Shown piece after piece: positions 9,977 through 34,095 of a stretch of DNA of 64,000 bases. The stretch comes from Alphaproteobacteria bacterium (lineage in GTDB: Bacteria; Pseudomonadota; Alphaproteobacteria; Paracaedibacterales; CAITNM01): assembly GCA_947478955.1 (NCBI GenBank), contig CANJXJ010000001.1:53746-117745 (forward strand). The letters run 5' to 3'. Numbering within the stretch: the first letter of the stretch is position 1; every line of letters begins with the position of its first letter. Under the pieces are notes generated by a model. That model was not told where the DNA came from. It saw only the letters and a list, made by a program, of their open reading frames with translations, and searched no databases. The position numbers and the translations under genes were made by a program.

Positions 9977-10471
9977 TTAGCCGCGACGCATACGTTCAAT
10001 TTCTTTTTCCACAATACCTTCAACAATTTTTCGTAAATTCTGATCAAGCCAATTTTTAATTAAAGGAGTAGCTAATTGGTTTAACAATTCATCTGGCGAT
10101 AACGTTGGAGGGGCCGGAATTGATGCCACAATTTCGCTCTGCAAACGGTTAAAAGGATTATCAGAATCTGGCGTTTGAAAAGGATTTTGTGCCGGCTGAG
10201 AATTAGGATGCATAGAATTTTGCCCTACCTCCGATTTTTCAACTGGCGTCATTGGTGTAAATGAAGGCAAAGGCTGAGTTGCTGCCAAGCTAATCGTTTC
10301 AATCGGAAGCACTTCATCAGTTAACTGAATAACCTCAGGAGTGTAAAGCCTTTTTTCAGTCGCTAAAGAAGCTTCCCCTTTTGGAAAAGTCTGCCCTTCT
10401 GACACGTAACTACGGATGGACGCTAAAATATCGTCCATACTCATATCTTGTTTACTCGTTACTGAGGACAT
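9977..10471 (-). CDS. DUF2497 / PopZ-like pole-organizing protein
   Basis: N-terminal MSMDDILASIRSYVSE, a Pro-rich acidic middle, and C-terminal LLNQLATPLIKNWLDQNLRKIVEGIVEKEIERM. This matches the tripartite PopZ/DUF2497 layout of alphaproteobacteria. The ORF is open to 10507; I chose the start at MSSVTSKQ (10471) and it is uncertain. Confidence 0.6.
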   Translation of the reverse strand: MSSVTSKQDMSMDDILASIRSYVSEGQTFPKGEASLATEKRLYTPEVIQLTDEVLPIETISLAATQPLPSFTPMTPVEKSEVGQNSMHPNSQPAQNPFQTPDSDNPFNRLQSEIVASIPAPPTLSPDELLNQLATPLIKNWLDQNLRKIVEGIVEKEIERMRRG

Positions 10472-10543
10472 AAACCAAGCCTTATACCTTTTGTGACATT
10501 CTAGCAAAAATAAAGCTAGATAGAAAAGAAGAACGTTGCCTAA

Positions 10544-13258
10544 TTAATCAACGGTTGATAACGTTTCTTCCAAAATTTCTTCGCCTTCTTCAACTTTGCT
10601 AACCGAAACAACGTTTTCACCGCTTTCAATCCTGAAAATAATCACCCCTTGGGTACGGCGTCCGGTAATACGAACATCTGTAATTGGGCAACGAATCAGC
10701 TGACCACTTGTGGTAACCAGCATAATTTGATCCTGCTCTCTTACAGGGAATGCCGCGACCACACCGCCATTACGCACACTGGTAATAATGCTGTCAAATC
10801 CAACACCGCCGCGTTTAGTTGTGCGATATTCATAAGCAGAGCTGCGCTTACCAAAACCATTTTCTGTAACGGTTAGAATAAACTCTTCCATTGCTTGAAG
10901 TTCTTCAAAGCGCTCATTTGTTATGGTGATTGCTGCGACTTCTTCTTCTGCTTCAATCACTTCTGGCTCATCACTCACACCTTGACGTGCAGCTTTAGCC
11001 ATTTTCAAATATGCATTACGTTCTTCAATAGTCACTTTGCCAGGGTTGAGTATGGTTACGCTGATAACATAATCGTTTGGCTGCAATCTTATTCCACGCA
11101 CACCATTGGAATCACGTCCTGCAAATACACGAACGTTATCTGCCACATTAAAGCGATTACATAATCCCTTTTTGGTAAACAACATCACGTCGTCTTTTTC
11201 TGTGCATAACTTTACAGCAATTAATTCTTCACCAGCATCATCAAGCTTCATAGCACGTTTGCCATTGCTTGGAATGTTTGAAAAATCTTCCAACTTATTA
11301 CGGCGCACATTTCCTGTGTTGGTGGCAAACATTAAGAATACTTCTTGATCTTTGCGTTCAGTTTCTTCAGGCAAAATCAATACAGTCGAAATTGTTTCAT
11401 TAGCTGTTAATGGCAATAAGTTTACCATGGCTCGCCCACGTGATTGAGGCGTTGCCAATGGAAGCTCATAGGCTTTCATTTGGTACACTTTACCAAGCGT
11501 TGAGAAGAACAATACGTGGCTATGGGTATTGGCAATAATGATATCGCAAACTACATCTTCATCCTTGATGGTCATAGCGGAACGCCCTTTACCACCACGC
11601 CTTTGGGCACGATAGGTAGACAATGGAACACGCTTAATATAACCACTCAAACTTACGGTAATCACCATGTCTTCACGTTGGATTAAATCATCTAATTCAA
11701 GCTTGGTAACCGCATCTTCAATAACAGTTTTGCGTGGACTTGGAAAAATTTCTTTAATAGCATTTAATTCATCTTTTAAGATATTCAAAACACGTTGACG
11801 TGATCCTAAAATATCCAAATATTCTTGAATGTCCTTCGCGATATCATCTAAGTCTTTTAGAATTTTTTCACGCTCTAAACCAGTTAAGCGATGTAGTCGC
11901 AAATCTAAAATTGCATTCGCTTGCAATTCGCTTAAACGATATTGACCGTCAATGCTAACAACATCCGTATTGGCCTCAACAAGCTTAATATAACCAGCAA
12001 CTGATGAACCATCCCAAGTACGATTTAGTAAGTGCTCACGTGCTTCGTTGCGATCTTTTGATCCACGAATTAATTCAATAACAGGATCAAGGTTAGCAAC
12101 CGCCACAGAAAAACCAAGTAACAAATGGCTTTTTTCCCGTGCGCGATGCAACAGATACTTTGTTCTGCGAGTAATAACCTCTTCACGAAAATCAATAAAG
12201 TGCTGCAGAATGCTTTTAATGGAAAGCTGCAAAGGGCGACCATGGACAATAGCCAGCATGTTGTAGCCAAAGCTTACTTGCAGCTGACTATGGCGGTAAA
12301 GTTTATTAAGAATAACTTCCGCGTTAACGTCCTTCTTCAATTCAATGACGACACGCACGCCTTCACGGTTTGACTCATCTCGTAGATCAGAAATTCCTTC
12401 GATGGTTTTATCGCGAACAAGTTCAGCGATTTTTTCAATCATGCGAGATTTGTTAACCTGATAAGGCGTTTCATGGATGATAATCGCCTCACGGCTGCCT
12501 GAAATATTTTCAATAGTCGTCTTGGAACGAATTGTAATACTACCACGGCCTGTATTGAATGCTTCAATAATACCTTTTCGGCCTAACACAATAGCACCTG
12601 TTGGGAAATCTGGCCCCGGCACATATTGCATAATTTCTTCAATGGTAAGATTAGGGTCATCAACTAATGCACAAGTAGCATCAACAATTTCGCCTAAATT
12701 ATGGGTTGGAATATTGGTGGCCATACCAACCGCAATTCCGTTAGTGCCATTTACTAAAAGATTTGGAAATTTAGCTGGAAGAACAATTGGCTCAACAGTT
12801 GTGTCGTCGTAGTTGGCACGAAAATCTACAGTATCTTGGTCGATATCATCCAATAGCGAATGTGCAACCTTGCTTAAGCGCGCTTCTGTATAACGTTCTG
12901 CTGCTGGTGGATCTCCGTCCATTGAACCAAAGTTACCCTGACCATCAACCAATGGAACACGCAAGCTAAACCATTGCGCCATTCGAACCATTGCATCATA
13001 GATAGCAAGGTTGCCATGAGGGTGATACTTCGCCATCACATTACCAACTACGTTGGCAGATTTCTTATGTGGCCTGTTATATTCCAGACCAATTTCTTTC
13101 ATGGTATATAAAATACGGCGATGTACCGGCTTCAAACCATCACGAACATCTGGCAAAGCACGCGAAACAATTACGCTCATGGCATAATCAAGATACGATC
13201 TCTTCATTTCCTCTTCTAAGGAAACCGGCTTTACATCAGAAGTAGTTTGCGTGCTCAT
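10544..13258 (-). CDS. gyrA: DNA gyrase subunit A
   Basis: 904 aa. Blocks: [39 protein letters not shown] (QRDR), [24 protein letters not shown]-terminal beta-pinwheel repeats are present. Confidence 0.96.
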
Positions 13259-13349
13259 AAATCAACTGTCCAAAAAAGTTAGCTAAACATTAGCATTTTT
13301 TCCTAAATGCATGCCACAAAAATAGTCTAACGACATTGCATTTTAAGAA

Positions 13350-13490
13350 AAAAAATCTTTAATTGCGTAAGTAATGCAGTCTTAAATTTTTACGGCGGCA
13401 ATTGCTCATACTATCTAGAATCAGGCCACATGCAAAGCTTAAAAATCCAGGTACCATTAAACCCACGCAAAGTAGGGTACTTGGAATGCG
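13350..13490. repeat. Direct repeat copy A (orphan copy of the 3' end of the GT2 gene)
   Basis: Aligns without gaps to 16345-16485 at a constant offset of 2995 bp. I count 7 mismatches in 141 positions by manual alignment. Confidence 0.9.
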
Positions 13491-13562
13491 ATAATAAACA
13501 TTATCCGTTTCAAAAATAGATTTAGTTGGAGTTCTTTGTACCCCCAATTCGTAAAAAATCAA
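13359..13562 (-). pseudogene. Remnant of a glycosyltransferase C-terminus (duplicate of the 16354-16485 region)
   Basis: The C-terminal 42 aa of this 67-aa ORF (IPSTLLCVGLMVPGFLSFACGLILDSMSNCRRKNLRLHYLRN) mirror the C-terminus of the 301-aa GT2. Its N-terminus is unrelated and overlaps the end of the upstream gene. Confidence 0.7.
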
Positions 13563-14778
13563 CTTCCTTTTCTGAAGTTATTCTTGGGTCAGGTATCATG
13601 GCCAATCCTGCGTATTTGCAAATGACTTTTTCCAGATAGTCCTTGCTAACGTAATTTTTCAGTGATGCCTCTCTAGATACTATGTAATTAAGCATTCTAG
13701 CATAGATGACATCCCCCCCATGAAAACCATCGATAAACTCACCATCATTTGTGGATAATAATTGATTGGGGTCAGTAAAATCATACACTTTAACATCGTT
13801 TTTTTTTAATTTTCCGCGCAACTCAGCGATATATGAATAATCATATTGTTTCATTAATTTGTTGATTTCTGGAGCTAAAGGTGGAAAAAACAGGATCACC
13901 TTAACATTATTTTTTTGAAAAATTTCCAACAAATCTAAAAATTTTTGAAAATGTATTTCTGAAAATGAAGTGCCATGTGTAAACCTACCGGTTCCCTTTG
14001 CAACACTGTCTGCCGTTTCTTTAAAGGACACATCACCAAAGTTATTACTATGTCCAGTAACAAGGTCAGTATAATAACAAGACCCGTCGGCAGAAATGCC
14101 TGATTTCCTTAGTTTTCCACCAACTCCTATATGGTGTGTTTTTGACAAAGTAAATAATCTCATATAGTCAGAAATAGTAATTTTTTCATCTTTAATCCAT
14201 TTGAATGGTAAAAGAAGGTGAGCTGGATCTATCTTATTTACTGCTCTTTGAGAACATAAATCATATGCATCTGATTTTTGAAAATTCTCATTGAACCACC
14301 AAAAATCTATCCCTAATAGTACCACTTGTGGGCGATGAGCAGTCAACATTGCTGCAGTTGCATTTAGTGCTTCATGAATTGAAGTAGCAGTGTAGCCCAT
14401 ATTATAAAATGATTTGGAGAAGAATTGCTCGCGAAATTGTAGAACCCTTGATGATCCGAAGGAAATTATTTTTGGTTTTTTATATTTGTATGAGTATAGC
14501 TTCAACTCACTTATATCATTAAAAATAGATGACCCATAAATATTAAATTCACCCACTTTATTTTGAGATTCAAAGATTTGCTTGGTTGATAAAAATTCTC
14601 CGCAATTTCTAAGAAATAGGTAGTTTAAATAAATTGGGATAAGAAAAAAAATAAAAATAAAAATATACGCTTTTAAAAATTTTCTGTAATTATTTTTGGA
14701 TTTTAATTCAAAGCTCTCTTTTCCCTCTTTATTATCGAACAAGTGGGTAGGAAGAATTGCGGGTATTTCATTTTGCAT
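13522..14778 (-). CDS. DltD/SGNH-like O-acyltransferase partner protein (membrane-anchored, extracytoplasmic)
   Basis: N-terminal TM anchor (AYIFIFIFFLIPIYLNYLF). Ser motif ISFGSSRV. C-terminal D-x-x-H motif (FIDGFHGG), as in SGNH/DltD-type esterase-transferases. Lies immediately downstream of an MBOAT gene. The 418-aa size is similar to DltD. Confidence 0.5.
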   Translation of the reverse strand: MQNEIPAILPTHLFDNKEGKESFELKSKNNYRKFLKAYIFIFIFFLIPIYLNYLFLRNCGEFLSTKQIFESQNKVGEFNIYGSSIFNDISELKLYSYKYKKPKIISFGSSRVLQFREQFFSKSFYNMGYTATSIHEALNATAAMLTAHRPQVVLLGIDFWWFNENFQKSDAYDLCSQRAVNKIDPAHLLLPFKWIKDEKITISDYMRLFTLSKTHHIGVGGKLRKSGISADGSCYYTDLVTGHSNNFGDVSFKETADSVAKGTGRFTHGTSFSEIHFQKFLDLLEIFQKNNVKVILFFPPLAPEINKLMKQYDYSYIAELRGKLKKNDVKVYDFTDPNQLLSTNDGEFIDGFHGGDVIYARMLNYIVSREASLKNYVSKDYLEKVICKYAGLAMIPDPRITSEKEVDFLRIGGTKNSN

Positions 14779-14790
14779 TTTATGTACTTT

Positions 14791-16320
14791 TTAAAAATTA
14801 AAATATAAAAATTCGATTTTTCTATGTGATAAAAGTGCAAGCATAATCCATACGCTCATTACGGATAAAATAACTGCATATGGTATCGAAGGTTTCCATA
14901 CCAATCGAATAAGTCTCTTACTCGGGGTGTTCGTTGATGTATTGTAATGCCCATTAAATGAAACGTGATTTCTTAAAAAATCCTTTATATTTGGGAAGAA
15001 TAAGCATGAAAATATTGAAGACAGCATCAGTGGTAAATAATCCCAAAAATAAAAAAGCTGATTAGCAAAAAAACCTTTATAATTAAAGAAGAAGAAATTA
15101 GGAACTACTCCTTTCAATACTGGAGAAATTGATAGTCCATATGAGCCAAACATGGATTTATACATAATGGTCGCTACTGTAAAGTTTTGAGATCTAAAAA
15201 CAACCCAAGCAACCATGACCGCAAACATGGTGAAGAACCAACATATCGCAAGGTAAGTTTTCTTTTTAACAAACTCTAAGTTTCTTTTTTTACAGTACGC
15301 ACGCCATAAATGATTAACAACTAGGTAGAAACCATGCAGTCCTCCCCAAAAAATAAATGTCCAATTTGCTCCGTGCCATAAGCCTCCAATTAGCATCGTG
15401 ACAAGCAGATTTCTGTGTTTCATAAAAAGTCCATCGCGATTCCCTCCCAAAGGCTTGTATACATAATCCCTTAAGAAGATTGATAGTGTAATATGCCATC
15501 TGCGCCAAAAATCGATAATAGATGTTGATGTATAGGGAGAATCAAAATTTAGAGGAAATGAAATATTAAATATTTTTGCTAATCCAACGGCCATATCACT
15601 GTAGCCAGAAAAATCAAAATACAATTGCAATGTATAACAAATTACTCCAAACCATGATTCTGCAAATGAAGGAATTAATCCATTAGAAGCTGCATCAAAA
15701 ACAGAATTTGCACACGGGGCTAACCCATCAGCAATAATAATTTTTTTGAAAAGCCCTATAATGAAAATCGTACCACCTATTACAATGTTTTCAACAGATA
15801 ATCCCACCTTTTCAAACTGTGGAGATATCTCTTTGTATTGAACAAGTGGGCCAGCTATAGAATGAGGAAAAAAACTTACAAGCAAAGCGTAATTCACAAT
15901 ATTTTTTTCTGGGTTGTTTCCGTGATATGTATCAACAAGATAAGCAATCTGTTGGAATGTGAAGAATGAGATACCTAAAGGCAATGCAATTTCTGCAAAA
16001 ATCAATGTCCCGGGAATAAAAGCTTTTAGATTTTGAAGAATGAAAAATGAGTACTTAAAATAAGAAATAACAGCGACGTTAAACAGAATAGCTAACGTCA
16101 AAACCCTTTTATTATTGCGTACATATTGTCCGATAAAAAAATTAACTAAAATTGATGTGACCATTAAGAGCAGATCATTTACGCTGTGGTATGCATAAAA
16201 AGCTAGAGACCCAGATAAAAGAAGTAAGAGCACAGTCCTGTTATTTTTTCTAAATAAATATAAGGATGCGCATAAGGCAGGAAGAAAAATAATAATAAAT
16301 TCAAGACTATTAAAAAGCAT
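14791..16320 (-). CDS. MBOAT-family membrane-bound O-acyltransferase (AlgI/DltB/PatA-like)
   Basis: Polytopic 509-aa protein with MBOAT signature blocks: FWRRWHITLSIFLRDYVYKPLGGNR and GGLWHGANWTFIFWGGLHG (the catalytic His region). Confidence 0.85.
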   Translation of the reverse strand: MLFNSLEFIIIFLPALCASLYLFRKNNRTVLLLLLSGSLAFYAYHSVNDLLLMVTSILVNFFIGQYVRNNKRVLTLAILFNVAVISYFKYSFFILQNLKAFIPGTLIFAEIALPLGISFFTFQQIAYLVDTYHGNNPEKNIVNYALLVSFFPHSIAGPLVQYKEISPQFEKVGLSVENIVIGGTIFIIGLFKKIIIADGLAPCANSVFDAASNGLIPSFAESWFGVICYTLQLYFDFSGYSDMAVGLAKIFNISFPLNFDSPYTSTSIIDFWRRWHITLSIFLRDYVYKPLGGNRDGLFMKHRNLLVTMLIGGLWHGANWTFIFWGGLHGFYLVVNHLWRAYCKKRNLEFVKKKTYLAICWFFTMFAVMVAWVVFRSQNFTVATIMYKSMFGSYGLSISPVLKGVVPNFFFFNYKGFFANQLFYFWDYLPLMLSSIFSCLFFPNIKDFLRNHVSFNGHYNTSTNTPSKRLIRLVWKPSIPYAVILSVMSVWIMLALLSHRKIEFLYFNF

Positions 16321-16344
16321 GGTTAAATATCAAATTGTTACAAT

Positions 16345-16485
16345 AAAAAATCTTTAATTGCGTAAGTAATGCAGTCTTAAATTTTCACGGCGGCAATTGC
16401 TCATACTATCTAGAATCAAGCCACATGCAAAGCTTAAAAATCCAAGCACCATTAAACCCACGCAAAGTAGGGCAGTTGGAACGCG
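16345..16485. repeat. Direct repeat copy B (authentic 3' end of the GT2 gene plus 9 nt)
   Basis: See copy A. Covers the last 43 codons, the stop codon and 9 downstream nt of the 16354..17259 gene. Confidence 0.9.
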
Positions 16486-17259
16486 TGATACATACGAAGT
16501 TGCTAAAAATTCTTGAATAACCTGCACGCCTAAAAATAATCCTAAGGCAATCAATAGGGCAGATATTAATGAAAACAACAAAAATGGACGAAAGTCTTTA
16601 AACAACGATAGCATGCGAAGTCCAATTTTAAATCCATCTTTAAACGTAGATAGCTTGCTTTGAGTGCCTGCGATACGATCAAAAAAATCAGTTTCAATTT
16701 CTTTAACGGGTAGCTTCAAATTAAGGGCAAATACTGATAGCTCCGTTTCAATATCAAATCCGTTTGAAATCGCCGGAAAACTTTTTATCATGCGGCGAGA
16801 AAAGGTTCGATACCCTGAAAAGATATCTTTAAAGTTACTTTGGAATAGCATTTTCAATGCGAAATTAAACAATTGGTTGCCTAATTTATGGCCGGTACGA
16901 TGGGCAGTTTCTGTTTTTTCAACACGAACTCCAATGACCATATCTAGCTGATTTTCCAAAAGCGTATTGACCAGTTCACGAGCACGAGAATGATCATAGG
17001 TACCGTCTCCATCAACCATAAGGTAAACATCGGCCTCAATGTTAGTAAACATTCGCCGCACCACATGCCCTTTACCTTGACGTGGCTCAAACTTTACAAT
17101 TGCTCCTGCCCGCTTAGCCTCTAATGTTGTGTTATCCGTTGAATTATTGTCATAAACATAAATATCAGCTTCTGGAAGCTGGGATTTAAAATCTTGAACA
17201 ACTTTATAAATGGCTTTTTCCTCGTTATAACAAGGGATAAGAACCGCAATTTTAGTCAT
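16354..17259 (-). CDS. Family-2 glycosyltransferase, polyprenyl-phosphate sugar synthase type (GtrB/ArnC/DPM1-like)
   Basis: N-terminal IAVLIPCYNEE. DxD region LMVDGDGTYD. Two C-terminal TM helices, as in GtrB/ArnC. Its start overlaps the upstream gene by 8 nt. Confidence 0.8.
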   Translation of the reverse strand: MTKIAVLIPCYNEEKAIYKVVQDFKSQLPEADIYVYDNNSTDNTTLEAKRAGAIVKFEPRQGKGHVVRRMFTNIEADVYLMVDGDGTYDHSRARELVNTLLENQLDMVIGVRVEKTETAHRTGHKLGNQLFNFALKMLFQSNFKDIFSGYRTFSRRMIKSFPAISNGFDIETELSVFALNLKLPVKEIETDFFDRIAGTQSKLSTFKDGFKIGLRMLSLFKDFRPFLLFSLISALLIALGLFLGVQVIQEFLATSYVSRVPTALLCVGLMVLGFLSFACGLILDSMSNCRRENLRLHYLRN

Positions 17260-18505
17260 TTTCTTTACTCGTAAATACCAGGTGTAAACATAACAGCCAA
17301 AAGCAAATCATCAGGCCATCCGTATAAATAGCATAACGCCGCAACACAGGCAAAAATATTGCTACAATTCCATAATTTAGAAATTGTAGGGTTGTCAGCA
17401 ATAAGCCGAAATAAAGCAGAAAGTTTTTTTCTCTTGCAATAAGCCTCCACAAACACACGGCAAAAGCGCAACAAACCAGGTAAAAATAATAATATCCCCC
17501 CATATTGTTTACAACATTTCTATAATAAACCTTAGCAAAGTCAGCCAAATTGTTTTTAAGCACTACAAACGTAACATCACTTAAAAGTTTTTCTGATTCA
17601 AGCGCGCCTAAATTTAAGTCCTGCATAGCCTTATTGGTGATTTCAAACCGCAAAATATCATGGATAATCTCAAACTTCTTATGGTAAGGCCATGCAAAAT
17701 TTGCGTAATCTTCTTGGAGCATCCCAAGTTTTTGTTTGTCCCGTTCTTTTAAGGCCTCTTCAAGAAAGCGTTTTTGTTCAGGCGTTTTTAATAAATCAAC
17801 ATCACTCGCTTTTGCTACGTATAATGGTGATGCAATAATAAATACCCCGGAAGGCGTACTGGTAAAATGTCCTGTTTTCGCAAACATGTAACTTTTTTCC
17901 ATTAAGAGGCCGCAAACAAAAAATGCTATTGGCCATAAAAATATGTGAAGCTTAACTTTTTTTCGGTGTATTAAATCTAGAAAAATCCATCCATAAAATC
18001 CTGTAAACACATAGCCAAATTGTTTTCTCGTGAGCATTAAACACAAGGCTAATCCCAGTGCTATAAAGAAATGTCGCGTATCTTCGAATTTTTTCCATAA
18101 TAATAATTGGCAGAAAAGCAATAAAAATAAAGGATAGGCCAGAGGTTCTGTAAGAATCGTATTGCCAATAATTGTGTGCCCAATATAAGGCAATGCAAGG
18201 CCTACAAATAATCCTATTTGAAGAAAAACCCCAAAACGTTTTTCAAACAATTTTGCAAAGCAAGCAACTGCATAAAAACAAGTTCCTAGACCAAGCACAA
18301 GTTGAACCAAAATGACTCCGTATAAATTATTCCAAATCAAACGACATGTATTTAAAAAGAAAGGATAAAATAATCCTCTAGAAGAACTAGCCTCTAAGTA
18401 TCCACCTGAGTCACTTTGAAGATAAGGACCCTGAGCAATCAAAACAGTAAAAATGATGCAACATAATACGCTCAAGAATTTATGTTGTTTAATGGTTTGG
18501 ATCAT
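17252..18505 (-). CDS. Polytopic membrane protein, possible GT-C-type glycosyltransferase
   Basis: At least 9 hydrophobic segments. The first loop carries acidic YLQSDSGGYLE. A soluble-looking loop lies at roughly aa 230-320. Operon position is upstream of the GtrB-like GT2. I recognise no diagnostic motif. Confidence 0.35.
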   Translation of the reverse strand: MIQTIKQHKFLSVLCCIIFTVLIAQGPYLQSDSGGYLEASSSRGLFYPFFLNTCRLIWNNLYGVILVQLVLGLGTCFYAVACFAKLFEKRFGVFLQIGLFVGLALPYIGHTIIGNTILTEPLAYPLFLLLFCQLLLWKKFEDTRHFFIALGLALCLMLTRKQFGYVFTGFYGWIFLDLIHRKKVKLHIFLWPIAFFVCGLLMEKSYMFAKTGHFTSTPSGVFIIASPLYVAKASDVDLLKTPEQKRFLEEALKERDKQKLGMLQEDYANFAWPYHKKFEIIHDILRFEITNKAMQDLNLGALESEKLLSDVTFVVLKNNLADFAKVYYRNVVNNMGGYYYFYLVCCAFAVCLWRLIAREKNFLLYFGLLLTTLQFLNYGIVAIFLPVLRRYAIYTDGLMICFWLLCLHLVFTSKEND

Positions 18506-18594
18506 GCGGATTAAATCTATAAACTAAAGATTGTTGATATTGTCATAACTATTTGTTTGGGGGCAACCCTGATAGAAAAAGCATAGGAATAAAA

Positions 18595-19689
18595 ATGCGT
18601 ATTTTTTCCAAATCCATAAGTCTTATTTTTCTGTTCTCATTTTTTACCCTTACTGCCGGCGGAATTCCTGACATTAAAACAAGCGTTGAAGTAAAAACAA
18701 TTTTTGGACGTATAAAACTTCAGGACGAGTTGTTACGGGTTTATAACCTTGAGCATATGCAACGCTTAAAGGGAATTGATCAATCGGGCACACCTGCTTA
18801 CTGGAATGGTGTTCCTAAATTTAGCAGGCTAGAGCATTCCCTTGACGTTTTGTGGCTGGTTCTAAATTTTGGGGGCGATCTTAAGGAGCAAATAGCAGCA
18901 TTTTGCCATGATATTTCTCACACTGTTTTTTCCCATGTGGCCGATATTGTTTTTGGTGTTGCGAATTACCAAGACACTATTCATGAATGGTTTTTACAAC
19001 AAACAAAAATAGCAGAAATTATACGTGGGTATGATTGGGTTGAAAAAGATATTCTACCTGACAATCCTGATTTTAAACGTCTTGAACAACCCTTGCCTGA
19101 TATGTGTGCTGATCGTATTGCCTATAATATACGCACTGCTTTTGTGTTTCGTATGATTAATCAAGAGGATATAGATTTCATTGTGAACAAGCTACGTTTT
19201 GATGATGAAAAAAAGAGATGGTATTTCACAAGCAAAAAAGCTGCAAAAAAATTTGCATTACTCTCTTTAGCATTTACCGAACATTTTTGGGGATCAGCTG
19301 ATAACATGGTTGTTTATTTTATTACCAGCAAAATCTTAAAGCGTGCTTTTTTGTTAGAGCGCATTACCAAAGATGACATGCATTTTGGGACAGACAAGCA
19401 AGTTCTAGACAAGCTTGATAATCCAGAAATTTGTGATGATCCAGAAATTAAACGTTTAATTGGCAAAGCAAAAATTCCTAAAACCGCATATCGTATCTTG
19501 GAGGATGATGAAGGTACGCCGGACTTTGTTCCTAAGCCTAAATTTAGAGGGATTGATCCTTGGGTGTATAATCAACACTCACAAGAATACAAACGCTTGT
19601 CTGAACTTGACCAAGAATTTGCGGCTGAATTTAAACGCATTGAAGAGTTTTGTAAAAAAGGGTACAAAATTCAACTAAACATTAAGTAA
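18595..19689 (+). CDS. HD-domain phosphohydrolase (SAMHD1/COG1078-like) with N-terminal signal/anchor sequence
   Basis: Blocks: MQRLKGIDQSG, RLEHSLDV, AAFCHDISHTVFSH (H...HD...H metal ligands), ADRIAYNIRT. The ATG at 18595 is preceded by AGGAA. The ORF-track start at 18553 is a TTG. The N-terminus MRIFSKSISLIFLFSFFTLTAGG is signal-peptide-like. Confidence 0.65.
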   Translation: MRIFSKSISLIFLFSFFTLTAGGIPDIKTSVEVKTIFGRIKLQDELLRVYNLEHMQRLKGIDQSGTPAYWNGVPKFSRLEHSLDVLWLVLNFGGDLKEQIAAFCHDISHTVFSHVADIVFGVANYQDTIHEWFLQQTKIAEIIRGYDWVEKDILPDNPDFKRLEQPLPDMCADRIAYNIRTAFVFRMINQEDIDFIVNKLRFDDEKKRWYFTSKKAAKKFALLSLAFTEHFWGSADNMVVYFITSKILKRAFLLERITKDDMHFGTDKQVLDKLDNPEICDDPEIKRLIGKAKIPKTAYRILEDDEGTPDFVPKPKFRGIDPWVYNQHSQEYKRLSELDQEFAAEFKRIEEFCKKGYKIQLNIK

Positions 19690-19771: not shown

Positions 19772-20692
19772 ATGGGGGATGGCATGCATCATTATTTTAC
19801 ACCCTTTTATAAGAAGCTTTTTGTAAGCTCTCTGTTCATTTTACTATTTGGATTATGGTATAGCGCTGAACATAAGACTGATGTTTTTCTTCCGTATCCA
19901 GACCTTATCAATCATGAAGGAAAAGTTCATTCGTCCCTTGTGGCAATTGCAAAGGTTCTTTACCCCAAAGAGGCCCCTGCAGAAAGGGATAGCGCTAAAA
20001 TATGGAATGCGTTTTTGCAAAAAAATTTTCTACGACCTGAAACGCAAGACCATCAAGAGGCTCAAAAAGCGGGGCAGCATCCAAAGCATCTGGAACTTCT
20101 CCCTCACTTCAAATCACTTAGATTGATTGATGAAATAATGCCAGAGCAACGAGAATTCGATGTGATTATTATTTTTGGGGGCACTCCATGGGATACTGAA
20201 GAACGCTTCCGCTGGGTTAATACTTTAGTGACAGAAAGAGGCATCAAAACCAAAGCCTTTATTTATATTAACGGCAAAAGACTGCTTAAATCTTCCGAAC
20301 TTGATTGGTTAAAAGGCAAAAAATTTGAGAATATAACTTACCAACATGAAGCCGCTAAAGCGCTATGGGATTGCTCTTATCTCCTTAAAAAAGATCCCCT
20401 CGCTATTATTACGGTTGCACCTCCTCCAGGTAGGCGAGCCAATACAAATGATACTTTGATTGCATTCTTAAAATATAAAAAAGAAAACGATATCCATAGT
20501 GTCTTGTTCATCACGAATGGACATTATGGTCCCTACCAATTTGAGACAGCTTCCATGGTAATTAAAGGATCCTTACAATTTGAGGGATCAAGCTCACCAT
20601 CTAATGACAATGTTTCAACGGTAAGTTTAACAGACACTCTCGCAAGACGTTTCTATACAATTGTTCAAAATTATAGTGCAAAGCCTGGCTAA
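19772..20692 (+). CDS. Membrane-anchored protein, possibly DUF218 (YdcF/ElyC/SanA-like) domain
   Basis: N-terminal TM (LFVSSLFILLFGLWY). Weak resemblance to DUF218 blocks: DVIIIFGG, HEAAKA, RRANTNDT, VLFITNGHYGPYQ. Confidence 0.35.
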   Translation: MGDGMHHYFTPFYKKLFVSSLFILLFGLWYSAEHKTDVFLPYPDLINHEGKVHSSLVAIAKVLYPKEAPAERDSAKIWNAFLQKNFLRPETQDHQEAQKAGQHPKHLELLPHFKSLRLIDEIMPEQREFDVIIIFGGTPWDTEERFRWVNTLVTERGIKTKAFIYINGKRLLKSSELDWLKGKKFENITYQHEAAKALWDCSYLLKKDPLAIITVAPPPGRRANTNDTLIAFLKYKKENDIHSVLFITNGHYGPYQFETASMVIKGSLQFEGSSSPSNDNVSTVSLTDTLARRFYTIVQNYSAKPG

Positions 20693-26364: not shown

Positions 26365-27303
26365 ATGAAACGGATATTTCAAAGTATTTTTGTTATTGTT
26401 GTTTGCGCAATATGTTTTGCATATTATGCGTGTCATCCCACCCATTTACCAAGCCAAGATTCAACATATCAACAATTTTTGCGCTATGTTCATTATGTAT
26501 ATTTAAAAATAAAACATGATCCTTTTTGTAATTTGCATATTCCCAAAAGTAACATTCCAATTGATGTGGTGATTCCTGTTATTGAAAAAGACGCCCAAAC
26601 TTTGGGACTTACCATTGATTCGGTGCGCGGCAATATTTTGCAGCCTATTACCAATATCTATCTGATTGCACCAGAGTCAGCACTGCTACGACAAATTGCC
26701 CATGAGAAGAGCTGTATGTTTGTGTTAGAAGACACAGTGTTGCCCGTATTTTTAAACAAGACCAACCGCCGTGGGTGGATCAAGCAACAATATTTAAAAC
26801 TTAATGCTGACACCGTTGGGACATGCGAACATTTTCTGGTTATTGACGCCGACACTATTCTTATTCGTCCCCAAGTTTTTGTAATATCTGGCAAGGAAAT
26901 TTTAAATATTTTGCATGATTACTGGTTTAAGCGAAAGCAAATGGTGAAAATAGCGTTGGGCTTTGATAAGTTTCACAATGTTGATTTCACTAGTCACCAT
27001 ATGATGCTTTGTAAAACAAAATTAAGAGCCTTGAAACAACATTTACAAAATGTGCATGGGTTACCATGGCAAGATGCGCTTGATGGCTTAAATACTCCAG
27101 AAGGTAGCTTTTCCGAATATGAATTGTATGGCAATTTTGTAGCGCAACGTTTTGAACCTGAAATTGAGCTTGTGTTGGGAAGTAATATGCTTTTTCCCCG
27201 TAATGGCGTTACAAATATAGGTTATGCGCGGGAATATTTAAGCTGCAAATACAAAAGCATGACGATGCACAGCTTTTTAACCATTGAAGGGATGACGGGG
27301 TAA
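26365..27303 (+). CDS. Membrane-anchored putative nucleotide-sugar glycosyltransferase (DUF6492-like), paralog 1
   Basis: N-terminal TM. Blocks: IDVVIPVIEKD, KQQYLKLNADT, FLVIDADT (DxD-like), LPWQD. Clearly homologous to the next gene along its full length. Confidence 0.45.
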   Translation: MKRIFQSIFVIVVCAICFAYYACHPTHLPSQDSTYQQFLRYVHYVYLKIKHDPFCNLHIPKSNIPIDVVIPVIEKDAQTLGLTIDSVRGNILQPITNIYLIAPESALLRQIAHEKSCMFVLEDTVLPVFLNKTNRRGWIKQQYLKLNADTVGTCEHFLVIDADTILIRPQVFVISGKEILNILHDYWFKRKQMVKIALGFDKFHNVDFTSHHMMLCKTKLRALKQHLQNVHGLPWQDALDGLNTPEGSFSEYELYGNFVAQRFEPEIELVLGSNMLFPRNGVTNIGYAREYLSCKYKSMTMHSFLTIEGMTG

Positions 27304-27310
27304 CCACTTT

Positions 27311-28240
27311 ATGAAGCGCTTTTTGGCTTTGTTGTCACTAATAATTTCCTTATCAATTTTAAGTATGTGGGGCATCACAGCACCTGAAACATTGCCAAAA
27401 AAAGATACCACATGGCACGCTTACAAAAGAAAGCTTTTTATGAAGTTTTTGTCCCTTAAAAGAGATAGGTATTCTAATAACCATGTTCCTTTATGTAAGC
27501 ATAAAATTGATGTTGTCTTCTTGTGCATTGAAAAAGATCTACCAACCATTCGTCATGCGATTGATGCAGTAAAAGGGTTGGTGATGCATCCTATTAACAA
27601 GATTTATTTGATTTGTCCCAATTCTGAAAAGCTGCGAGCAGTTGCACAAGAAAAAGGCTGTGAGTTTGTAGAAGAAACTAAAATTATGCCTCATCTTGCG
27701 GGGGCTAGTCCAAGACATCTAAAGCAACAACTTATAAAACTTAATGCAGATACAATCACCACTGCCGATTACTTTTTGGTGATGGATGCCGATACAGTTT
27801 TGCTGCAAACCCAAATATTTCTTCGAGAAGGTAAGGCTGTGTTAAATGCCTTTGGTGAGTATGTGTTAGGCAGCAAGGTTACGGTTGAATCAGCATTGAA
27901 ACTTGAAAAGTATTACAATCTTGATTTTAATAGCCATCATATGTTTTTTGAAAAATCAAAACTTAAAGCCATGAAAGATAGATTAGAGAAATTACACGGG
28001 CTTCCATGGCAGGATGTTTTAAATACCTCAGAAATTGCAAGTGAGGCCTTTTCAGGATATGAAATGTATGCGAACTTTATACTAGCATTTTTCCCTAATG
28101 AAGCAGTGATTGTACATGGTAAAAACTCACAGATGCCTGCAGATCGAATTTCTGGAATCGAGTGGCAACGCGGGTTCTTGTCAAAAGGTTACAAAAGCCT
28201 TTCATTTCATCACTCTATGACAACCGAGAACTATAGCTAA
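27311..28240 (+). CDS. Membrane-anchored putative nucleotide-sugar glycosyltransferase (DUF6492-like), paralog 2
   Basis: N-terminal TM. Blocks: IDVVFLCIEKD, KQQLIKLNADT, FLVMDADT, HGLPWQD. Collinear with paralog 1, with roughly one third of residues identical by eye. Confidence 0.45.
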   Translation: MKRFLALLSLIISLSILSMWGITAPETLPKKDTTWHAYKRKLFMKFLSLKRDRYSNNHVPLCKHKIDVVFLCIEKDLPTIRHAIDAVKGLVMHPINKIYLICPNSEKLRAVAQEKGCEFVEETKIMPHLAGASPRHLKQQLIKLNADTITTADYFLVMDADTVLLQTQIFLREGKAVLNAFGEYVLGSKVTVESALKLEKYYNLDFNSHHMFFEKSKLKAMKDRLEKLHGLPWQDVLNTSEIASEAFSGYEMYANFILAFFPNEAVIVHGKNSQMPADRISGIEWQRGFLSKGYKSLSFHHSMTTENYS

Positions 28241-28243
28241 ATA

Positions 28244-29332
28244 ATGTTGCAATTTTTGTGTATTCATATCCTAGGCGATTTTAAGGCTTTTAACCTTCTG
28301 CGTTATATTACTTTTCGCACGATGGGAGCGATTTTAACGGCACTAATTATTAGTTTTTGCCTAGGAAAACCTATTATTTCTTGGCTTAAATCAAAGCAAA
28401 AACAAGGTCAACCAATTCGTAGTGATGGACCAGAGTCACACTTAGTAACCAAAAAAGGAACGCCAACTATGGGAGGCTGCCTAATTTTACTGGCAGTTTC
28501 TATAAGTACGTTGCTTTGGGGAGATTTGGCAAATCCCTTTTTGTGGATTGTGCTGCTTGTAACTTTAGGATTTGGTGCATTGGGTGCCATGGATGATTAT
28601 AAAAAACTGACTCGAAATTCCCATCATGGTATTTCAGGAAAAACAAAACTTTTAGGACAAACTATATTGGCAATGAGTGCCGCTTATGCCTCAGCCTACT
28701 ATACCGATATAAGCCTTGCCCATAGTTTAACCGTTCCATTTTTCAAAGACGTGATTATTAACTTGAGTTGGTTTTTCTATCCATGGGCTGTGCTAGTTAT
28801 CGTAGGCTCATCAAACGCAGTTAACTTAACAGATGGATTGGATGGCTTGGCAATTGTTCCGGTAATGATTTGTTCTGTGTGCTTTACAATTATCGCGTAT
28901 CTTGTGGGGAACCATGTTTTTTCCCATTATCTGCAGCTGCACTATGTGGCAAATGTGGGTGAAATTGGAATCTTCCTTGGCAGTATTATTGGGGCAGGTT
29001 TGGGCTTTTTATGGTTTAATGCACCCCCTGCAAAAGTATTTATGGGAGATACGGGGTCACTTGCTGCCGGAGGAGCACTAGGGACTATTGCTCTGATTAC
29101 AAAACACGAATTAGTGCTGTGCATTATTGGCGGTTTGTTTGTGCTTGAAGCGGTATCAGTCATTTTGCAAGTTGGATATTATAAGCTTACGAAAAAACGT
29201 ATTTTCCTTATGGCGCCGATTCACCACCATTTTGAAAAATTAGGATGGGCCGAATCTACGGTGGTGATTCGCTTTTGGATTATTGCATCGATTCTGGCCC
29301 TGGTTGGTCTTGCTACCTTGAAAATTAGATAA
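28244..29332 (+). CDS. mraY: Phospho-N-acetylmuramoyl-pentapeptide transferase
   Basis: 362 aa. Blocks: [65 protein letters not shown]. Confidence 0.94.
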
Positions 29333-30015
29333 TGTTAATTTCTCTAAAGGCTGCAGGTTATACCCTTGAGTCACCCCCTAAAACCTTATTGCATGATATT
29401 AATTTTGATGTTTTGCCTAATAGTGTTACAACGATTATTGGCCCAAATGGTGCAGGCAAAACTACTCTTGTGCGGTTGCTTTTAGGGCTAATTCAACCGA
29501 CAGCAGGAACGGTTACCCGGCAAAGACACATAACAATGGGATATGTCCCGCAAAAACTTCACGCTAATCGGTTTATGCCCATGACGGTAAGTACATTTCT
29601 AAGCTTATGCGGGGACCAAAAACTTGAGCATCCGTTTGATATTTCTCATTTAATGACCAGATCAATTCATGCATTGTCAGGGGGGGAATTACAAAAAGTA
29701 CTTTTCAATGCAGCTGTGCTGAAAAAGCCTGATTTATTAATTCTTGATGAGCCGACCCAAGGGATTGATGCGGACGGACAATCGGCATTTTACCGAAAAT
29801 TAATCGAGCTGAAGAACAAATACAACATGGCGATTGTGCTGATTTCCCATGATCTCCATTTTGTATTTGATTGCACTGATCATGTGATTTGTTTAAACCA
29901 CCATGTGTGTTGCCAAGGTACACCTGAAAAAGTGCGGCAAATTCAAGAAGTGCAACAGCTGTTTCCGGGCTTCGCACCCTATCAACATCATCATGATCAC
30001 CACCACCATGATTGA
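29332..30015 (+). CDS. znuC: Zinc ABC transporter ATP-binding protein
   Basis: Walker A GPNGAGKTT, signature LSGGELQKV, Walker B LLILDEP, His-rich tail HHHDHHHHD. The start overlaps the mraY stop (TAATG). Confidence 0.75.
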   Translation: MLISLKAAGYTLESPPKTLLHDINFDVLPNSVTTIIGPNGAGKTTLVRLLLGLIQPTAGTVTRQRHITMGYVPQKLHANRFMPMTVSTFLSLCGDQKLEHPFDISHLMTRSIHALSGGELQKVLFNAAVLKKPDLLILDEPTQGIDADGQSAFYRKLIELKNKYNMAIVLISHDLHFVFDCTDHVICLNHHVCCQGTPEKVRQIQEVQQLFPGFAPYQHHHDHHHHD

Positions 30016-30781
30016 TTCATTCGTCCTTTTTATTGTGGTATCAGCCCTGTTGGCGAGCCTCATTACCGCACCTCTTGGATGCATAGGCCTTTGGAATGGT
30101 TTGGCATTTTTTGGGGATACCTTGGCCCATGCATCGTTGCTAGGGGTATGTTTTAGTGTACTTTTACAAGTGCCCTATGCCTGTGGGGCGGTTGTCGTAT
30201 GCTTGGCGATAGCCTATTTCATTGCTCATAAATCCTCAAAGCAAAGCGATGTGTCGTTAGCGGTGATTTCCTATAGTTGCCTTTCGTTTAGTATGTTAGT
30301 GATATCGTTATTTCCAAAGGCTAATCTTGATCCAAATACGTTGTTGTTCGGTGATTTGCTAAGCACAAGCTCATCTGATGTTTTACTTCTTGCAATAGCC
30401 CTTGCAGTGCTATGGGGGGGAATTGCAAAATATTGGTCAGCGATTTTAATGACTAGCTTTGATGCCGACCTTGCACAAATCCAAGGATTTCCATCAAGAG
30501 CGATACGCCTGATGGTACTTTTTGCCTATGCAATCATTATAGGGATTGTAATGAAAATGCTGGGAGCATTGTTTGCACCAGCCCTTACAATTATTCCAGC
30601 TGCGGCTGCAAGATACCGTTCAAAAACTCCTTCTCAGATGATGACATCAGCTATAGTGATTAGTTGTTTTTCAAGCATTATAGGTATTGGCATAAGTTTG
30701 TATTTTGATCTACCTACGGGACCATCAATCATTTGCGTATCGGCAATTACAATGGCGCTTATAAAAATAAGCGCCAAGTAA
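30008..30781 (+). CDS. znuB: Zinc ABC transporter permease
   Basis: ABC-3 family permease (FFGDTLAHASLLG, LLFGDLLS). The ATG at 30008 overlaps the znuC stop (ATGATTGA). The ORF-track start at 29903 is an unlikely extension inside znuC. Confidence 0.72.
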   Translation: MIDSFVLFIVVSALLASLITAPLGCIGLWNGLAFFGDTLAHASLLGVCFSVLLQVPYACGAVVVCLAIAYFIAHKSSKQSDVSLAVISYSCLSFSMLVISLFPKANLDPNTLLFGDLLSTSSSDVLLLAIALAVLWGGIAKYWSAILMTSFDADLAQIQGFPSRAIRLMVLFAYAIIIGIVMKMLGALFAPALTIIPAAAARYRSKTPSQMMTSAIVISCFSSIIGIGISLYFDLPTGPSIICVSAITMALIKISAK

Positions 30782-32793: not shown

Positions 32794-34095
32794 TTAAGCC
32801 AACTTTAGCTCTTCTTCCTTTTCATTATGATTTGCATAATGAGGTGCTGGGCTATAAAGTTTTGCCTTATGGCGATAGAACCTTGAGATAGTAGTAAAGA
32901 TGATAGCGTATACAGAAATAATGATTGCAGCCATGTACATATTGCCGCTGTAGCCTGTCATGAACGTATAGACTGATGGCATGAATCCGCCCGATATCGC
33001 GATTCCGATGGAGAAGCTAACGGCAACGCCTGTGTAGCGTGTCTCAGCTGGGAACAATACCTGCATAAACGCATGGCTTAAACCCACAAAGCTGCCTACG
33101 TACAGTCCTACACCATATTGCCCTAGGCCAACGAGCACTAGATCTTTTGACTGAAGCAAATAAAAGCTGAAGTAAGAAAGGGTACAACATAAGAAACAAG
33201 ATAAATATACTGATTTTCGCATGGTGATTTTATCGCTCAGCCAACCAAAAAACGTACAGCCTGAGGTATATCCGAGTAATCCAAAGACATTCAGGAACAC
33301 AGCGGTTGACATGTCATGCCCTAAGAATTTAGTCATATAGACATTCATAAAACCAAACACGGTATAGGTCAGGGACCCTTTGAAAATACCGACCCCGATA
33401 TTCATTAAAAATGCAGCTTTATGTTTTTGAAAAATAACTTTCATTGGGCTTTTTTGTTGTTTTTTCTTTTCTGCAATATGAAGGAACGCGTCGGTTTCTT
33501 TTGCATTTTTACGAAGCACAAAACCCATGAAGCTTACCAAGGCGCCAATGAGAAATGGAACCCTCCATGCCCAGTCTGGCATGCCAGGGCGTAACATGAG
33601 TGATCCGGCAAAACTTGCAAACACGGCGCCTACCATGCATGATCCGGCAATAATGCCGCTGATTAAACCCACCTGTTTGGCTTTTCCATGCTCAATAGCA
33701 AAGATCGCAGCCCCGTTATATTCACCACCCGTTGAAAGCCCTTGTACCATACGGCATAATACCAAAATAATAGGAGCAGCTATGCCTATGGTGTTATATC
33801 CGGGCAAAAGGGAGATGATTAATGTAGGGAACCCCATTAACATAACGGAATAAGTGAGAGCAACTTTGCGCCCAAAGGTGTCACCGACCAAGCCAAAAAC
33901 ATAAGCGCCTAGGGGCCGCGTAAAAAAAGCTGCAGAAAACGCAAATATACTTGCAAAAAGCGCTATCGTAGGAGACGTGTTAGGAAAAAAAACTTCAGAA
34001 ATTTTAGCAATAAAGACGCCACAAATAACAAAATCATAAAACTCAAGTGCGTTTCCTAGGGCACTGGTTCCAATCATTTTCCATGAATGTTTCAT
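32794..34095 (-). CDS. MFS metabolite:H+ symporter (ProP-like proline/betaine transporter family)
   Basis: 433 aa with 12 predicted TM segments. Blocks: NALEFYDF, RPLGAYVFGLVGDTFGRK (MFS motif A), GLSTGGEY. Confidence 0.75.
   Translation of the reverse strand: MKHSWKMIGTSALGNALEFYDFVICGVFIAKISEVFFPNTSPTIALFASIFAFSAAFFTRPLGAYVFGLVGDTFGRKVALTYSVMLMGFPTLIISLLPGYNTIGIAAPIILVLCRMVQGLSTGGEYNGAAIFAIEHGKAKQVGLISGIIAGSCMVGAVFASFAGSLMLRPGMPDWAWRVPFLIGALVSFMGFVLRKNAKETDAFLHIAEKKKQQKSPMKVIFQKHKAAFLMNIGVGIFKGSLTYTVFGFMNVYMTKFLGHDMSTAVFLNVFGLLGYTSGCTFFGWLSDKITMRKSVYLSCFLCCTLSYFSFYLLQSKDLVLVGLGQYGVGLYVGSFVGLSHAFMQVLFPAETRYTGVAVSFSIGIAISGGFMPSVYTFMTGYSGNMYMAAIIISVYAIIFTTISRFYRHKAKLYSPAPHYANHNEKEEELKLA

Follow-up and report, generated by a model that had tools for sequence, protein, structure and literature searches.

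A duplicated glycosyltransferase gene end flanks a two-gene O-acyltransferase-type cassette that is polymorphic within an uncultured alphaproteobacterial species

Analysis of a 64,000-nucleotide (nt) stretch of an alphaproteobacterial genome (assembly GCA_947478955.1, contig CANJXJ010000001.1; the whole stretch is referred to here as the window, and all coordinates are those of the window unless stated otherwise) showed that two genes, encoding an MBOAT O-acyltransferase and a DltD/SGNH-like partner, lie between a GT2 glycosyltransferase gene and gyrA and are bracketed by direct repeats of the GT2 3' end. The copy next to the two genes on one side is the functional end of the GT2 gene; the other is an orphan. 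The cassette is present in one strain and absent from another strain of the same species, its junction is old and is shared with a diverged cassette from another lineage, and its genes are under purifying selection. We regard it as moderately probable that an old, homology-dependent integration at the GT2 3' end was followed by exchange and loss through homologous recombination, with the orphan kept similar to the functional copy by gene conversion.

All genes of the locus are on the minus strand, and the order of transcription is p417, GT2, MBOAT gene, DltD-like gene, orphan GT2 end, 100 nt of intergenic sequence, and gyrA (Table 1). A repeat search of the region from 11 to 19 kb found a single long direct repeat, of 148 nt and 93% identity, with a spacing of 2995 between its copies (13343-13490 and 16338-16485). 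The initial annotation had described 141-bp repeats at this offset with seven mismatches, and both search and count bore this out exactly: 13350-13490 and 16345-16485 differ, counted in gene orientation over these 141 nt, at positions 4, 11, 13, 39, 41, 67, and 100, leaving runs of identity of 3, 6, 1, 25, 1, 25, 32, and 41 nt. The probability of 134 or more matches in 141 positions is about 1e-60 (binomial tail), so the similarity is not due to chance; there are exactly two copies of the repeat in the whole window. As had also been annotated, 16345-16485 comprises the last 43 codons, the stop codon, and 9 nt of the GT2 gene, here placed in a 301-amino-acid (aa) open reading frame (ORF) at 16354-17259, and the earlier translation and codon counts of the orphan were correct, its reading frame forming part of a 67-aa ORF (13359-13562, minus strand) just upstream of gyrA. 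The duplicated part of the protein is the second membrane helix and the cytoplasmic tail. Four of the seven mismatches are substitutions unique to the orphan (A>T, L>P, one synonymous, and E>K); at the remaining three the orphan has the allele state of L099, one of the related genomes described below (P of about 0.005 by chance). The mismatches between the copies form a gradient toward the edge at 13490.

The limits of the duplication proved wider than was first thought. Similarity had been said to collapse right outside the 141 bp; instead, an alignment to a profile of GT2 alleles extends past 13490 to about 13517 (nhmmer posterior support), and the GT2 copy keeps ancestral intergenic sequence for about 11 to 20 nt beyond its stop codon, its homology to the GT2 ends of relatives reaching about 16342-16334. 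The 31-nt trailer between the DltD-like stop codon and the repeat probably stems from the 5' part of the displaced GT2 fragment (about GT2 nt 745 to 775), which has since decayed. In a shuffle test, it resembled the 'TGYVYR' allele type, with a P value of 0.003 against L099 and of 0.06 after the maximum over alleles was taken. An 'LGVQ' similarity upstream of the orphan was considered as a remnant reaching into the DltD-like gene and was rejected, the C terminus of the DltD-like protein being native to its family.

The uninterrupted form of the site is found in the relatives. The nearest named genomes are Candidatus Finniella metagenome-assembled genomes (MAGs; Paracaedibacteraceae, Holosporales), with a GT2 protein that is 94% identical. 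Ten independent lineages were compared at the DNA level (L004-L009, L010-L013, L018, L019, L020, L021, and L098/L099); their GT2 orthologs are 82 to 95% identical to that of the window and adjoin gyrA in every case, in the arrangement glnA <- HD-domain gene / GT2 -> gyrA with a GT2-gyrA gap of about 100 nt, and in none of the ten is there an MBOAT or DltD-like gene at this site. By blastn, 13486..10577 corresponds to 8779..11696 of L004 (GT2 end, intergenic region, and gyrA), 17275..16342 corresponds to L004 7985..8917 (GT2), and 19677..18479 corresponds to the HD-domain gene; with L099, the stretch 13493..10000 is colinear. The colinearity of these segments with L004 places the orphan at the ancestral position and makes the cassette extra DNA. 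The check proposed with the initial annotation, that in related genomes the GT2 gene is followed directly by gyrA, came out positive in the ten lineages and also in a conspecific strain.

That strain, which we call strain E, is known here from the gene maps and proteins of a 17,861-nt contig (JGI 3300059473, also in NCBI). Its whole gene map is that of the window minus the cassette: gene coordinates match up to GT2, including those of p306, the HD-domain gene, and p417, and its GT2-gyrA gap is 102 nt, versus 100 nt from the orphan stop codon to gyrA in the window. Over nine proteins, 34 of 3853 residues differ between the two strains (99.1% identity), and the differences are spread across all genes. 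Strain E is a conspecific but distinct strain, and the cassette is a presence/absence polymorphism within the species. The strain E GT2 protein (P0202) differs from that of the window at two residues, L252F and C289Q, both within the last 55 codons, i.e., the duplicated segment (a probability of about 0.03 if the differences were uniformly placed). Gln occupies position 289 in strain E and, L098/L099 excepted, in every other lineage; both copies of the repeat have Cys there. Codons 289 to 291 read TGC CGC CGT here versus CAG CGC AGG in the L004 clade. Since strain E has Gln289 and both repeat copies have Cys289, strain E is neither an assembly collapse nor the recombination product of these repeats. 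An exact-pattern scan of metagenome contigs for the strain E site returned nothing, and a protein-seeded scan returned just GT2 genes of at most 54% identity.

The age of the architecture was indicated by a second cassette. The closest nonidentical homolog of the DltD-like protein (P0122, 72% aa identity) is encoded on L181, a Logan contig of 1816 nt (SRR6231203). The whole of L181 is colinear with 15231..13361 at 74.6% nt identity and comprises the MBOAT 3' end, the DltD-like gene, the trailer, and a GT2 3' fragment that is again an orphan. Homology extends to the two trailers (ACGGATAATGTTTATTATCGCAT in the window versus ACGAATAATAGGATTTATATCTCGCAT in L181), and both orphans carry TGY CGC CGT AAA (Cys...Lys); the L181 orphan has disabling changes of its own, namely, a 2-nt deletion, Cys>Tyr, and Asp>Gly. 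Synonymous divergence (dS) between the two cassettes is 1.0 to 1.5, the same value as for gyrA or GT2 when this strain is compared with L004 or L099, and dN/dS is 0.12 to 0.16. The cargo is functional, under purifying selection, and as old as the radiation of these lineages. A junction shared with a cassette at a dS of about 1 means that the architecture is old and did not arise in a recent single event. The two orphans are 15% apart, each is close to functional copies, and the window orphan is 5% from its own functional copy; this is too little divergence for neutral fragments of that age, which argues that the orphans have been repeatedly homogenized with functional copies by conversion or recombinational import. 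Homogenization would explain the sharp boundary at 13490 next to a decayed, unconverted trailer, the mismatch gradient, and the three mismatches in the L099 state. A search for a donor allele with the orphan peptide retrieved just P0269, from the contig L180 described below, and nothing closer to the orphan than its own GT2.

These results can be put together as follows. DNA with a copy of the last 55 or so GT2 codons would have integrated via this homology, either by a Campbell-type single crossover of a circular fragment or by a one-ended '3'-end displacement', giving a complete GT2 gene upstream of a 2.8-kb two-gene cargo and, downstream of it, an orphan GT2 end that has kept its connection to the ancestral gyrA leader. 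The module would later have been gained and lost among strains by homologous recombination in the GT2 and gyrA flanks or between the repeats. Meanwhile the orphan would have persisted as a noncoding relic: gene conversion, or crossovers within the repeat, would have held it about 95% like the resident functional copy while its 5' edge (13491-13521) decayed. The most economical account of the difference between the two strains may be that this one took up, from a relative with the cassette, the whole segment that starts inside the GT2 3' end and includes the orphan; alternatively, strain E would have imported the empty allele. Import of either kind would explain why both copies have Cys289 and why the GT2 differences are clustered. 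The locus resembles Campbell integration, as known from suicide plasmids, in that the insert lies between direct repeats of the homology segment, one running on into the upstream part of the target and the other into the downstream part, and in that the uninterrupted target is present in close relatives (strain E and the ten lineages). It differs in that no vector or circular form is known, the Cys289 pattern does not fit one clean crossover, and two lineages share a junction that is old. Toward its 5' end the orphan is of a different allele type, yet Cys289 is in both copies versus Gln in strain E. The Campbell insertion proposed in the initial annotation therefore holds as an insertion relative to all relatives, for which homology-dependent duplication is most economical, and fails as a recent single crossover, given the shared junction and the Cys289 pattern.

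Several observations weigh against this reconstruction. Neither a circular form, a donor, nor a recombinase turned up. A plain crossover into a strain E-like recipient, with Gln289, cannot give two copies with Cys289, so an extra step of conversion or import is needed. L181 is a 1.8-kb contig that ends inside its orphan, and a placement between GT2 and gyrA would lie beyond it; the shared Lys codon could have arisen independently in each orphan through a G>A change (an estimated chance of roughly 10%). The homology of the trailer to GT2 is just borderline significant after correction, gene conversion is deduced from patterns of identity, and donors of the DltA/DltC type are absent from the locus.

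The main rival explanation, which we judge unlikely, is that the cassette is the remnant or satellite of a site-specific element that attaches at the GT2 3' end (nt ~740 to stop+16), with its integrase lost or supplied in trans and the resident gene end displaced as the orphan. The architecture matches that of icd/icdC around the E. coli element e14, the cargo is trimmed almost exactly to two ORFs (a leader of about 13 nt and a trailer of at most 31 nt), both GT2 differences between this strain and strain E lie in the segment concerned, and a second detached GT2 end was found. The latter is on L180, a 564-nt ENA contig (ERZ19572007 scaffold_454637) from an F. inopinata-type strain, which encodes P0269 and was retrieved with the orphan peptide. 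Its positions 104-286 (183 nt) match the GT2 end of F. inopinata at 98.9% identity (L019 7369-7551; GT2 nt 740 to stop+16), and neither flank is related: a divergent ORF (MLSIIEQVMHLS...) starts on the left, and the right flank has a strong ribosome-binding site with a 15-codon ORF and, on the other strand, what looks like the 3' half of a tRNA-Lys(UUU)-like gene. The limits match those of the full duplicated segment in the window (trailer start at about nt 745 and homology end 11 to 20 nt past the stop codon), as they would at an attP-like junction or another insertion at the same site; L180 could be either of these, or a chimeric assembly path. Against a site-specific element stands the lack of an integrase, transposase, or recombinase gene in the insert, which has two ORFs only, or within about -13 to +20 kb, in agreement with the initial annotation, which had seen no integrase or transposase nearby. 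L180 is a single 564-nt metagenomic contig, perhaps a chimeric path through the repeat, and neither the repeat nor the L180 flank had a match in the viral contigs of IMG/VR. The orphan, as the displaced resident end, should also resemble strain E, but it differs at seven residues, of which about three are explained by decay. A further reading, in our judgment rather unlikely, is that the last ~183 nt of GT2 (nt 740 to stop+16) would be a dedicated capture site in Candidatus Finniella, taking up different cargoes at the same boundaries (the MBOAT/DltD-like pair in two lineages and unrelated DNA in L180), with the gene end regenerated, an orphan left behind, and no recombinase encoded by the cargo. 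If true, an obligate intracellular bacterium would have a system for capturing cassettes that is integrase-less or acts in trans.

The remaining alternatives concern timing, reversibility, and assembly. A single duplicative insertion in this strain in recent times, arising either as a long target-site duplication where a break was staggered or as a new Campbell event, with the mismatches as later mutations, would fit copies that are 95% identical, the four of seven differences that are unique and derived in the orphan, three of them nonsynonymous as in a young pseudogene, and a decay of the same order as the estimated neutral divergence between this strain and strain E. We find it very improbable, as the same junction, trailer, and orphan accompany a 25%-diverged cassette in L181, three mismatches reproduce another lineage's allele (the P of about 0.005 given above), identity falls abruptly at 13490 while decayed homology goes on, and at least two to three nucleotide changes are needed between the Cys289 of both copies and the Gln289 of strain E. 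That the repeats act as a switch, with frequent precise RecA-dependent excision turning surface O-acylation on and off, is quite improbable as well. Runs of identity of 25, 25, 32, and 41 nt could support rare homologous deletion, presence/absence within the species is real, cassette-free states are common across the clade, and recombination between icd and icdC upon loss of e14 is a precedent. But the lone empty-site strain has Gln289, found in neither repeat, together with 34 other residue differences over nine genes, and is a separate lineage rather than a segregant; all three long contigs with the exact GT2 and all four with the exact MBOAT carry the cassette; and loss would be irreversible without a donor, hence 'off' only. 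The precise loss with on/off variation suggested in the initial annotation was not borne out, in that excision, circles, and switching are nowhere shown and strain E is not a product of repeat recombination. A 3025-nt Logan contig (L003, SRR6787038_292173) was considered as the excised circle: it equals 16374..13350 without a mismatch, i.e., 2995 + 30 nt, and its first and last 30 nt are identical. These ends are the last 30 nt of the shared 41-nt stretch (k-1), as expected of a k=31 assembly-graph loop, and the candidate was rejected. The data are metagenomic, and repeats can break or misjoin contigs (the ends of L003, L181, and L180 are in the repeat or close to it), but the chance that the repeat or the empty site is an artifact of misassembled reads is next to nil: the arrangement recurs in independent assemblies (a 129-kb ENA metagenome contig that includes the window, a 138.7-kb NCBI MAG contig with the same proteins, which Logan assemblies also encode, and L003 at 100% over 3025 nt), the copies can be resolved by seven differing sites, and strain E has alleles present in neither copy.

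Base composition contributed little to the question of origin. The cassette genes have G+C contents of 0.325 and 0.330, the lowest of the 42 ORFs of the window (mean, 0.387; z scores of -2.2 and -2.0), and so they are more AT rich, as initially annotated, by about two standard deviations (SD). Their G+C content at codon position 3 (GC3) is just 1.1 and 0.9 SD below the mean, however, and it is a very low GC1 that drives the difference; G+C is likewise lower than the mean in GT2, p417, and the HD-domain gene. The AT richness comes mainly from amino acid composition, not codon position 3, and is therefore weak evidence of foreign origin; after the GC1/GC3 split, we dropped it as proof of such an origin. 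Far stronger compositional outliers in the window are an ABC-3 permease gene (29903-30781, plus strand) and an MFS transporter gene (32794-34095, minus strand), whose GC3 of 0.416 to 0.417 is three SD above the mean.

Table 1. Features of the GT2-gyrA locus (coordinates in the 64,000-nt window)
Feature	Coordinates	Strand	Description and support
p417	17252..18505	-	417-aa multipass membrane protein; first gene of the apparent operon; context, outside the cassette
GT2 glycosyltransferase, intact	16354..17259	-	301 aa; PF00535 (1.7e-18); two C-terminal membrane helices
R-GT	16338..16485	-	Functional last 43 GT2 codons, stop codon, and first nt of the ancestral intergenic region (repeat search, relatives)
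Spacer, GT2 stop to MBOAT start	16321..16353	-	33 nt; holds the left insert junction at about 16334-16342
MBOAT O-acyltransferase	14791..16320	-	509 aa; PF03062 (2.2e-26)
DltD/SGNH-like partner	13522..14778	-	418 aa; N-terminal membrane helix and alpha/beta domain
Trailer	13491..13521	-	31 nt between DltD-like stop codon and repeat; conserved with the L181 trailer
R-orphan	13343..13490	-	Displaced GT2 3' fragment, pseudogene
Ancestral GT2-gyrA intergenic region	13259..13342	-	Colinear with all relatives
gyrA	10544..13258	-	904 aa; NF004043 and TIGR01063 above cutoffs; conserved right-hand anchor

The gene calls of the initial annotation for the cargo, MBOAT plus DltD/SGNH-like, were right. The MBOAT protein matches PF03062 over residues 74 to 374 with 93.4 bits (cutoff, 27) and contains in translation the histidine motifs FWRRWHITLS and GGLWHGANW, of which we take FWRRWH and GLWHG to hold the catalytic histidines, as in DltB. 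It fails the DltB equivalog TIGR04091 (166.2 bits; cutoff, 375), and its closest solved relatives are the DltB structures 6BUG (1.6e-26) and 8JEM (~2e-26). The DltD-like family is rare, with 71 members among 5.8 billion proteins. An alignment of 11 members showed an invariant GSSR (G108-S109-S110-R111) and DGFHGGD (D350 and H353), which supply the serine of SGNH block I and the Asp-x-x-His of block V (D350-G-F-H353). An AlphaFold2 model of the protein (pLDDT, 79) had as its top Foldseek matches the DltD structures 6pfx, 3bma, and 6o93 (E values of 3.6e-4 to 4e-3; probability of ~1), followed by GDSL/SGNH acylhydrolases, with low TM-scores of 0.3 to 0.4 to DltD and about 0.5 to GDSL domains; no sequence relative was found in the PDB. 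At the level of sequence families, DUF1574 (PF07611) was barely passed, at 29.8 bits for a cutoff of 29.1 over the last 100 residues alone, and matched 3 of the 11 members; DltD (PF04914) matched 2 of the 11 with an E value of 0.036, and the match to Lipase_GDSL was weak too. 'MBOAT plus DltD/SGNH-like' is thus a fair label for the cassette. No DltA, DltC, or DltX gene is present in the locus, which consists of p417, GT2, MBOAT, and DltD-like genes with gyrA, the HD-domain gene, and glnA as neighbors; because DltA and DltC are missing from it and the equivalog thresholds are not reached, membership in the Dlt system proper is unsupported.

The cargo is probably cotranscribed with p417 and GT2, since the gaps are short (33 nt between GT2 and MBOAT and 12 nt between MBOAT and the DltD-like gene) and a motif scan found no promoter or terminator above chance level; the four-gene run has no convincing internal promoter or terminator, and none stands out in the 33-nt spacer. 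The GT2 protein resembles polyprenyl-phosphate sugar synthases (AglJ/DPM1/GtrB/ArnC-like), matching TIGR04182 (AglJ) at 7.5e-64 but under its cutoff. p417, which overlaps the GT2 start by 8 nt, may be a glycan-transferring partner of GT2. It had no match in Pfam, NCBIfam, or PDB, and its single-sequence AlphaFold2 model was unusable (pLDDT, 42). It is present in this strain, strain E, and L098/L099 and absent from the L004 clade (F. inopinata), L010-13, L020, and L021; a 23%-identical homolog adjoins a GT2 gene in a Eubacteriales MAG (L070). Downstream, the ancestral intergenic region presumably carries the gyrA promoter. The idea that the orphan is kept as a gyrA promoter was unsupported, since the blocks conserved with the relatives fall in the 100-nt intergenic region downstream of the orphan and a motif scan gave nothing above chance.

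Two further lineage-specific gene additions lie nearby, p417 and p306, and no long duplications flank either insertion. The gene p306 (19772-20692, plus strand) lies between the HD-domain gene and glnA and was found solely in this species, i.e., in this strain and strain E; its 12 amino acid differences between the strains are clustered at residues 199 to 263, which suggests a recombination patch. Another apparent envelope-glycan gene group, about 8 kb from the GT2 locus, is at 26365-29332 (plus strand), with two tandem DUF6492 paralogs followed by a GT4/MraY-like (WecA-type) transferase gene. At about 23.9 to 24.2 kb (L001 3069-3368), ribosomal protein L31 is called with 99 aa in this species, versus 74 to 75 aa in the rest of its 90% cluster, a matter of either an N-terminal extension or a different start codon call.

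More distant homologs of the MBOAT/DltD-like pair have other, unrelated surroundings: in L017 (49%) they lie between rnhA and usg, P0124 (55%) is encoded next to a polysaccharide gene cluster, and a 69%-identical homolog adjoins a PBP gene in L014. No GT2 fragment was found at these three sites. Given these contexts, the pair appears to behave as a portable two-gene module. Members of the DltD-like family also occur in Fluoribacter (Legionella) dumoffii. In L014 (GCA_973318375.1, CCWSIC010000193.1), the module is broken: an IS630-family transposase (1481-2516; HTH_Tnp_IS630 and DDE_3, in two ORFs) has replaced all but the last ~39 MBOAT codons upstream of the DltD-like gene, and the neighboring PBP gene encodes a transpeptidase.

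The footprint is of a kind already known. Insertion of e14 or phage 21 in the 3' end of E. coli icd leaves a complete gene on one side and a near-identical, displaced C-terminal fragment (icdC) on the other, and recombination between them can remove the insert (PMC13626634, citing Hill et al. 1989). The likeness lies in an insert at the 3' end of a coding gene, with a complete gene and a displaced fragment of a few dozen codons; e14 differs in being a 15-kb prophage with its own integrase and SOS-induced excision, whereas the insert described here measures 2.8 kb and carries two envelope genes and no recombinase gene, and no excision of it was observed. At rhs, contact-dependent inhibition (CDI), and type VI secretion system (T6SS) effector loci, C-terminal ends are displaced and become orphans, which has been attributed to homology-facilitated illegitimate recombination (PMC5361080, citing Jackson et al. 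2009, de Vries & Wackernagel 2002, and Prudhomme et al. 2002). There, too, incoming DNA is anchored in a conserved part of a gene and the old 3' end is displaced downstream as an orphan that keeps a conserved stretch, but the displaced piece is a different toxin tip with an immunity gene, diversity is what matters, and arrays are formed; here it is the same gene end, with unrelated cargo and one orphan.

The cargo, too, is of a known kind. DltB/DltD, PatA/PatB, and AlgI/AlgJ/AlgX are two-component systems for extracytoplasmic O-acyl transfer, and the cassette is like them in having an MBOAT gene beside a gene for a membrane-anchored or periplasmic SGNH-like partner, with DltB and DltD as the best solved matches. 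It differs from Dlt in falling short of the curated DltB/DltD thresholds, in the absence of DltA, DltC, and DltX from the locus, in the rare 71-member partner family, and in its host, a Gram-negative alphaproteobacterial endosymbiont. From family and fold, we infer that the MBOAT protein would pass an acyl group, most likely acetyl, across the inner membrane and that the membrane-anchored SGNH-like partner would transfer it to an envelope glycan. New in the present case are the uncultured endosymbiont host, an insert without an integrase, the rare DltD-like family, and an orphan maintained across species-level divergence.

Protist-endosymbiont lineages such as the Holosporales are usually regarded as genetically isolated and streamlined. 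The locus, with the empty site of a conspecific strain beside it, documents the gain and loss of envelope modification genes, probably by homologous recombination, in an uncultured protist endosymbiont of this order. A displaced gene-end pseudogene that is kept similar over species-level divergence can mislead the dating of insertions from repeat identity. Gram-negative intracellular bacteria may have a distinct O-acylation system, with the DltD-like family as its marker. We speculate that differences in surface O-acylation between co-occurring strains, if they exist, could affect recognition by the host or by phages.

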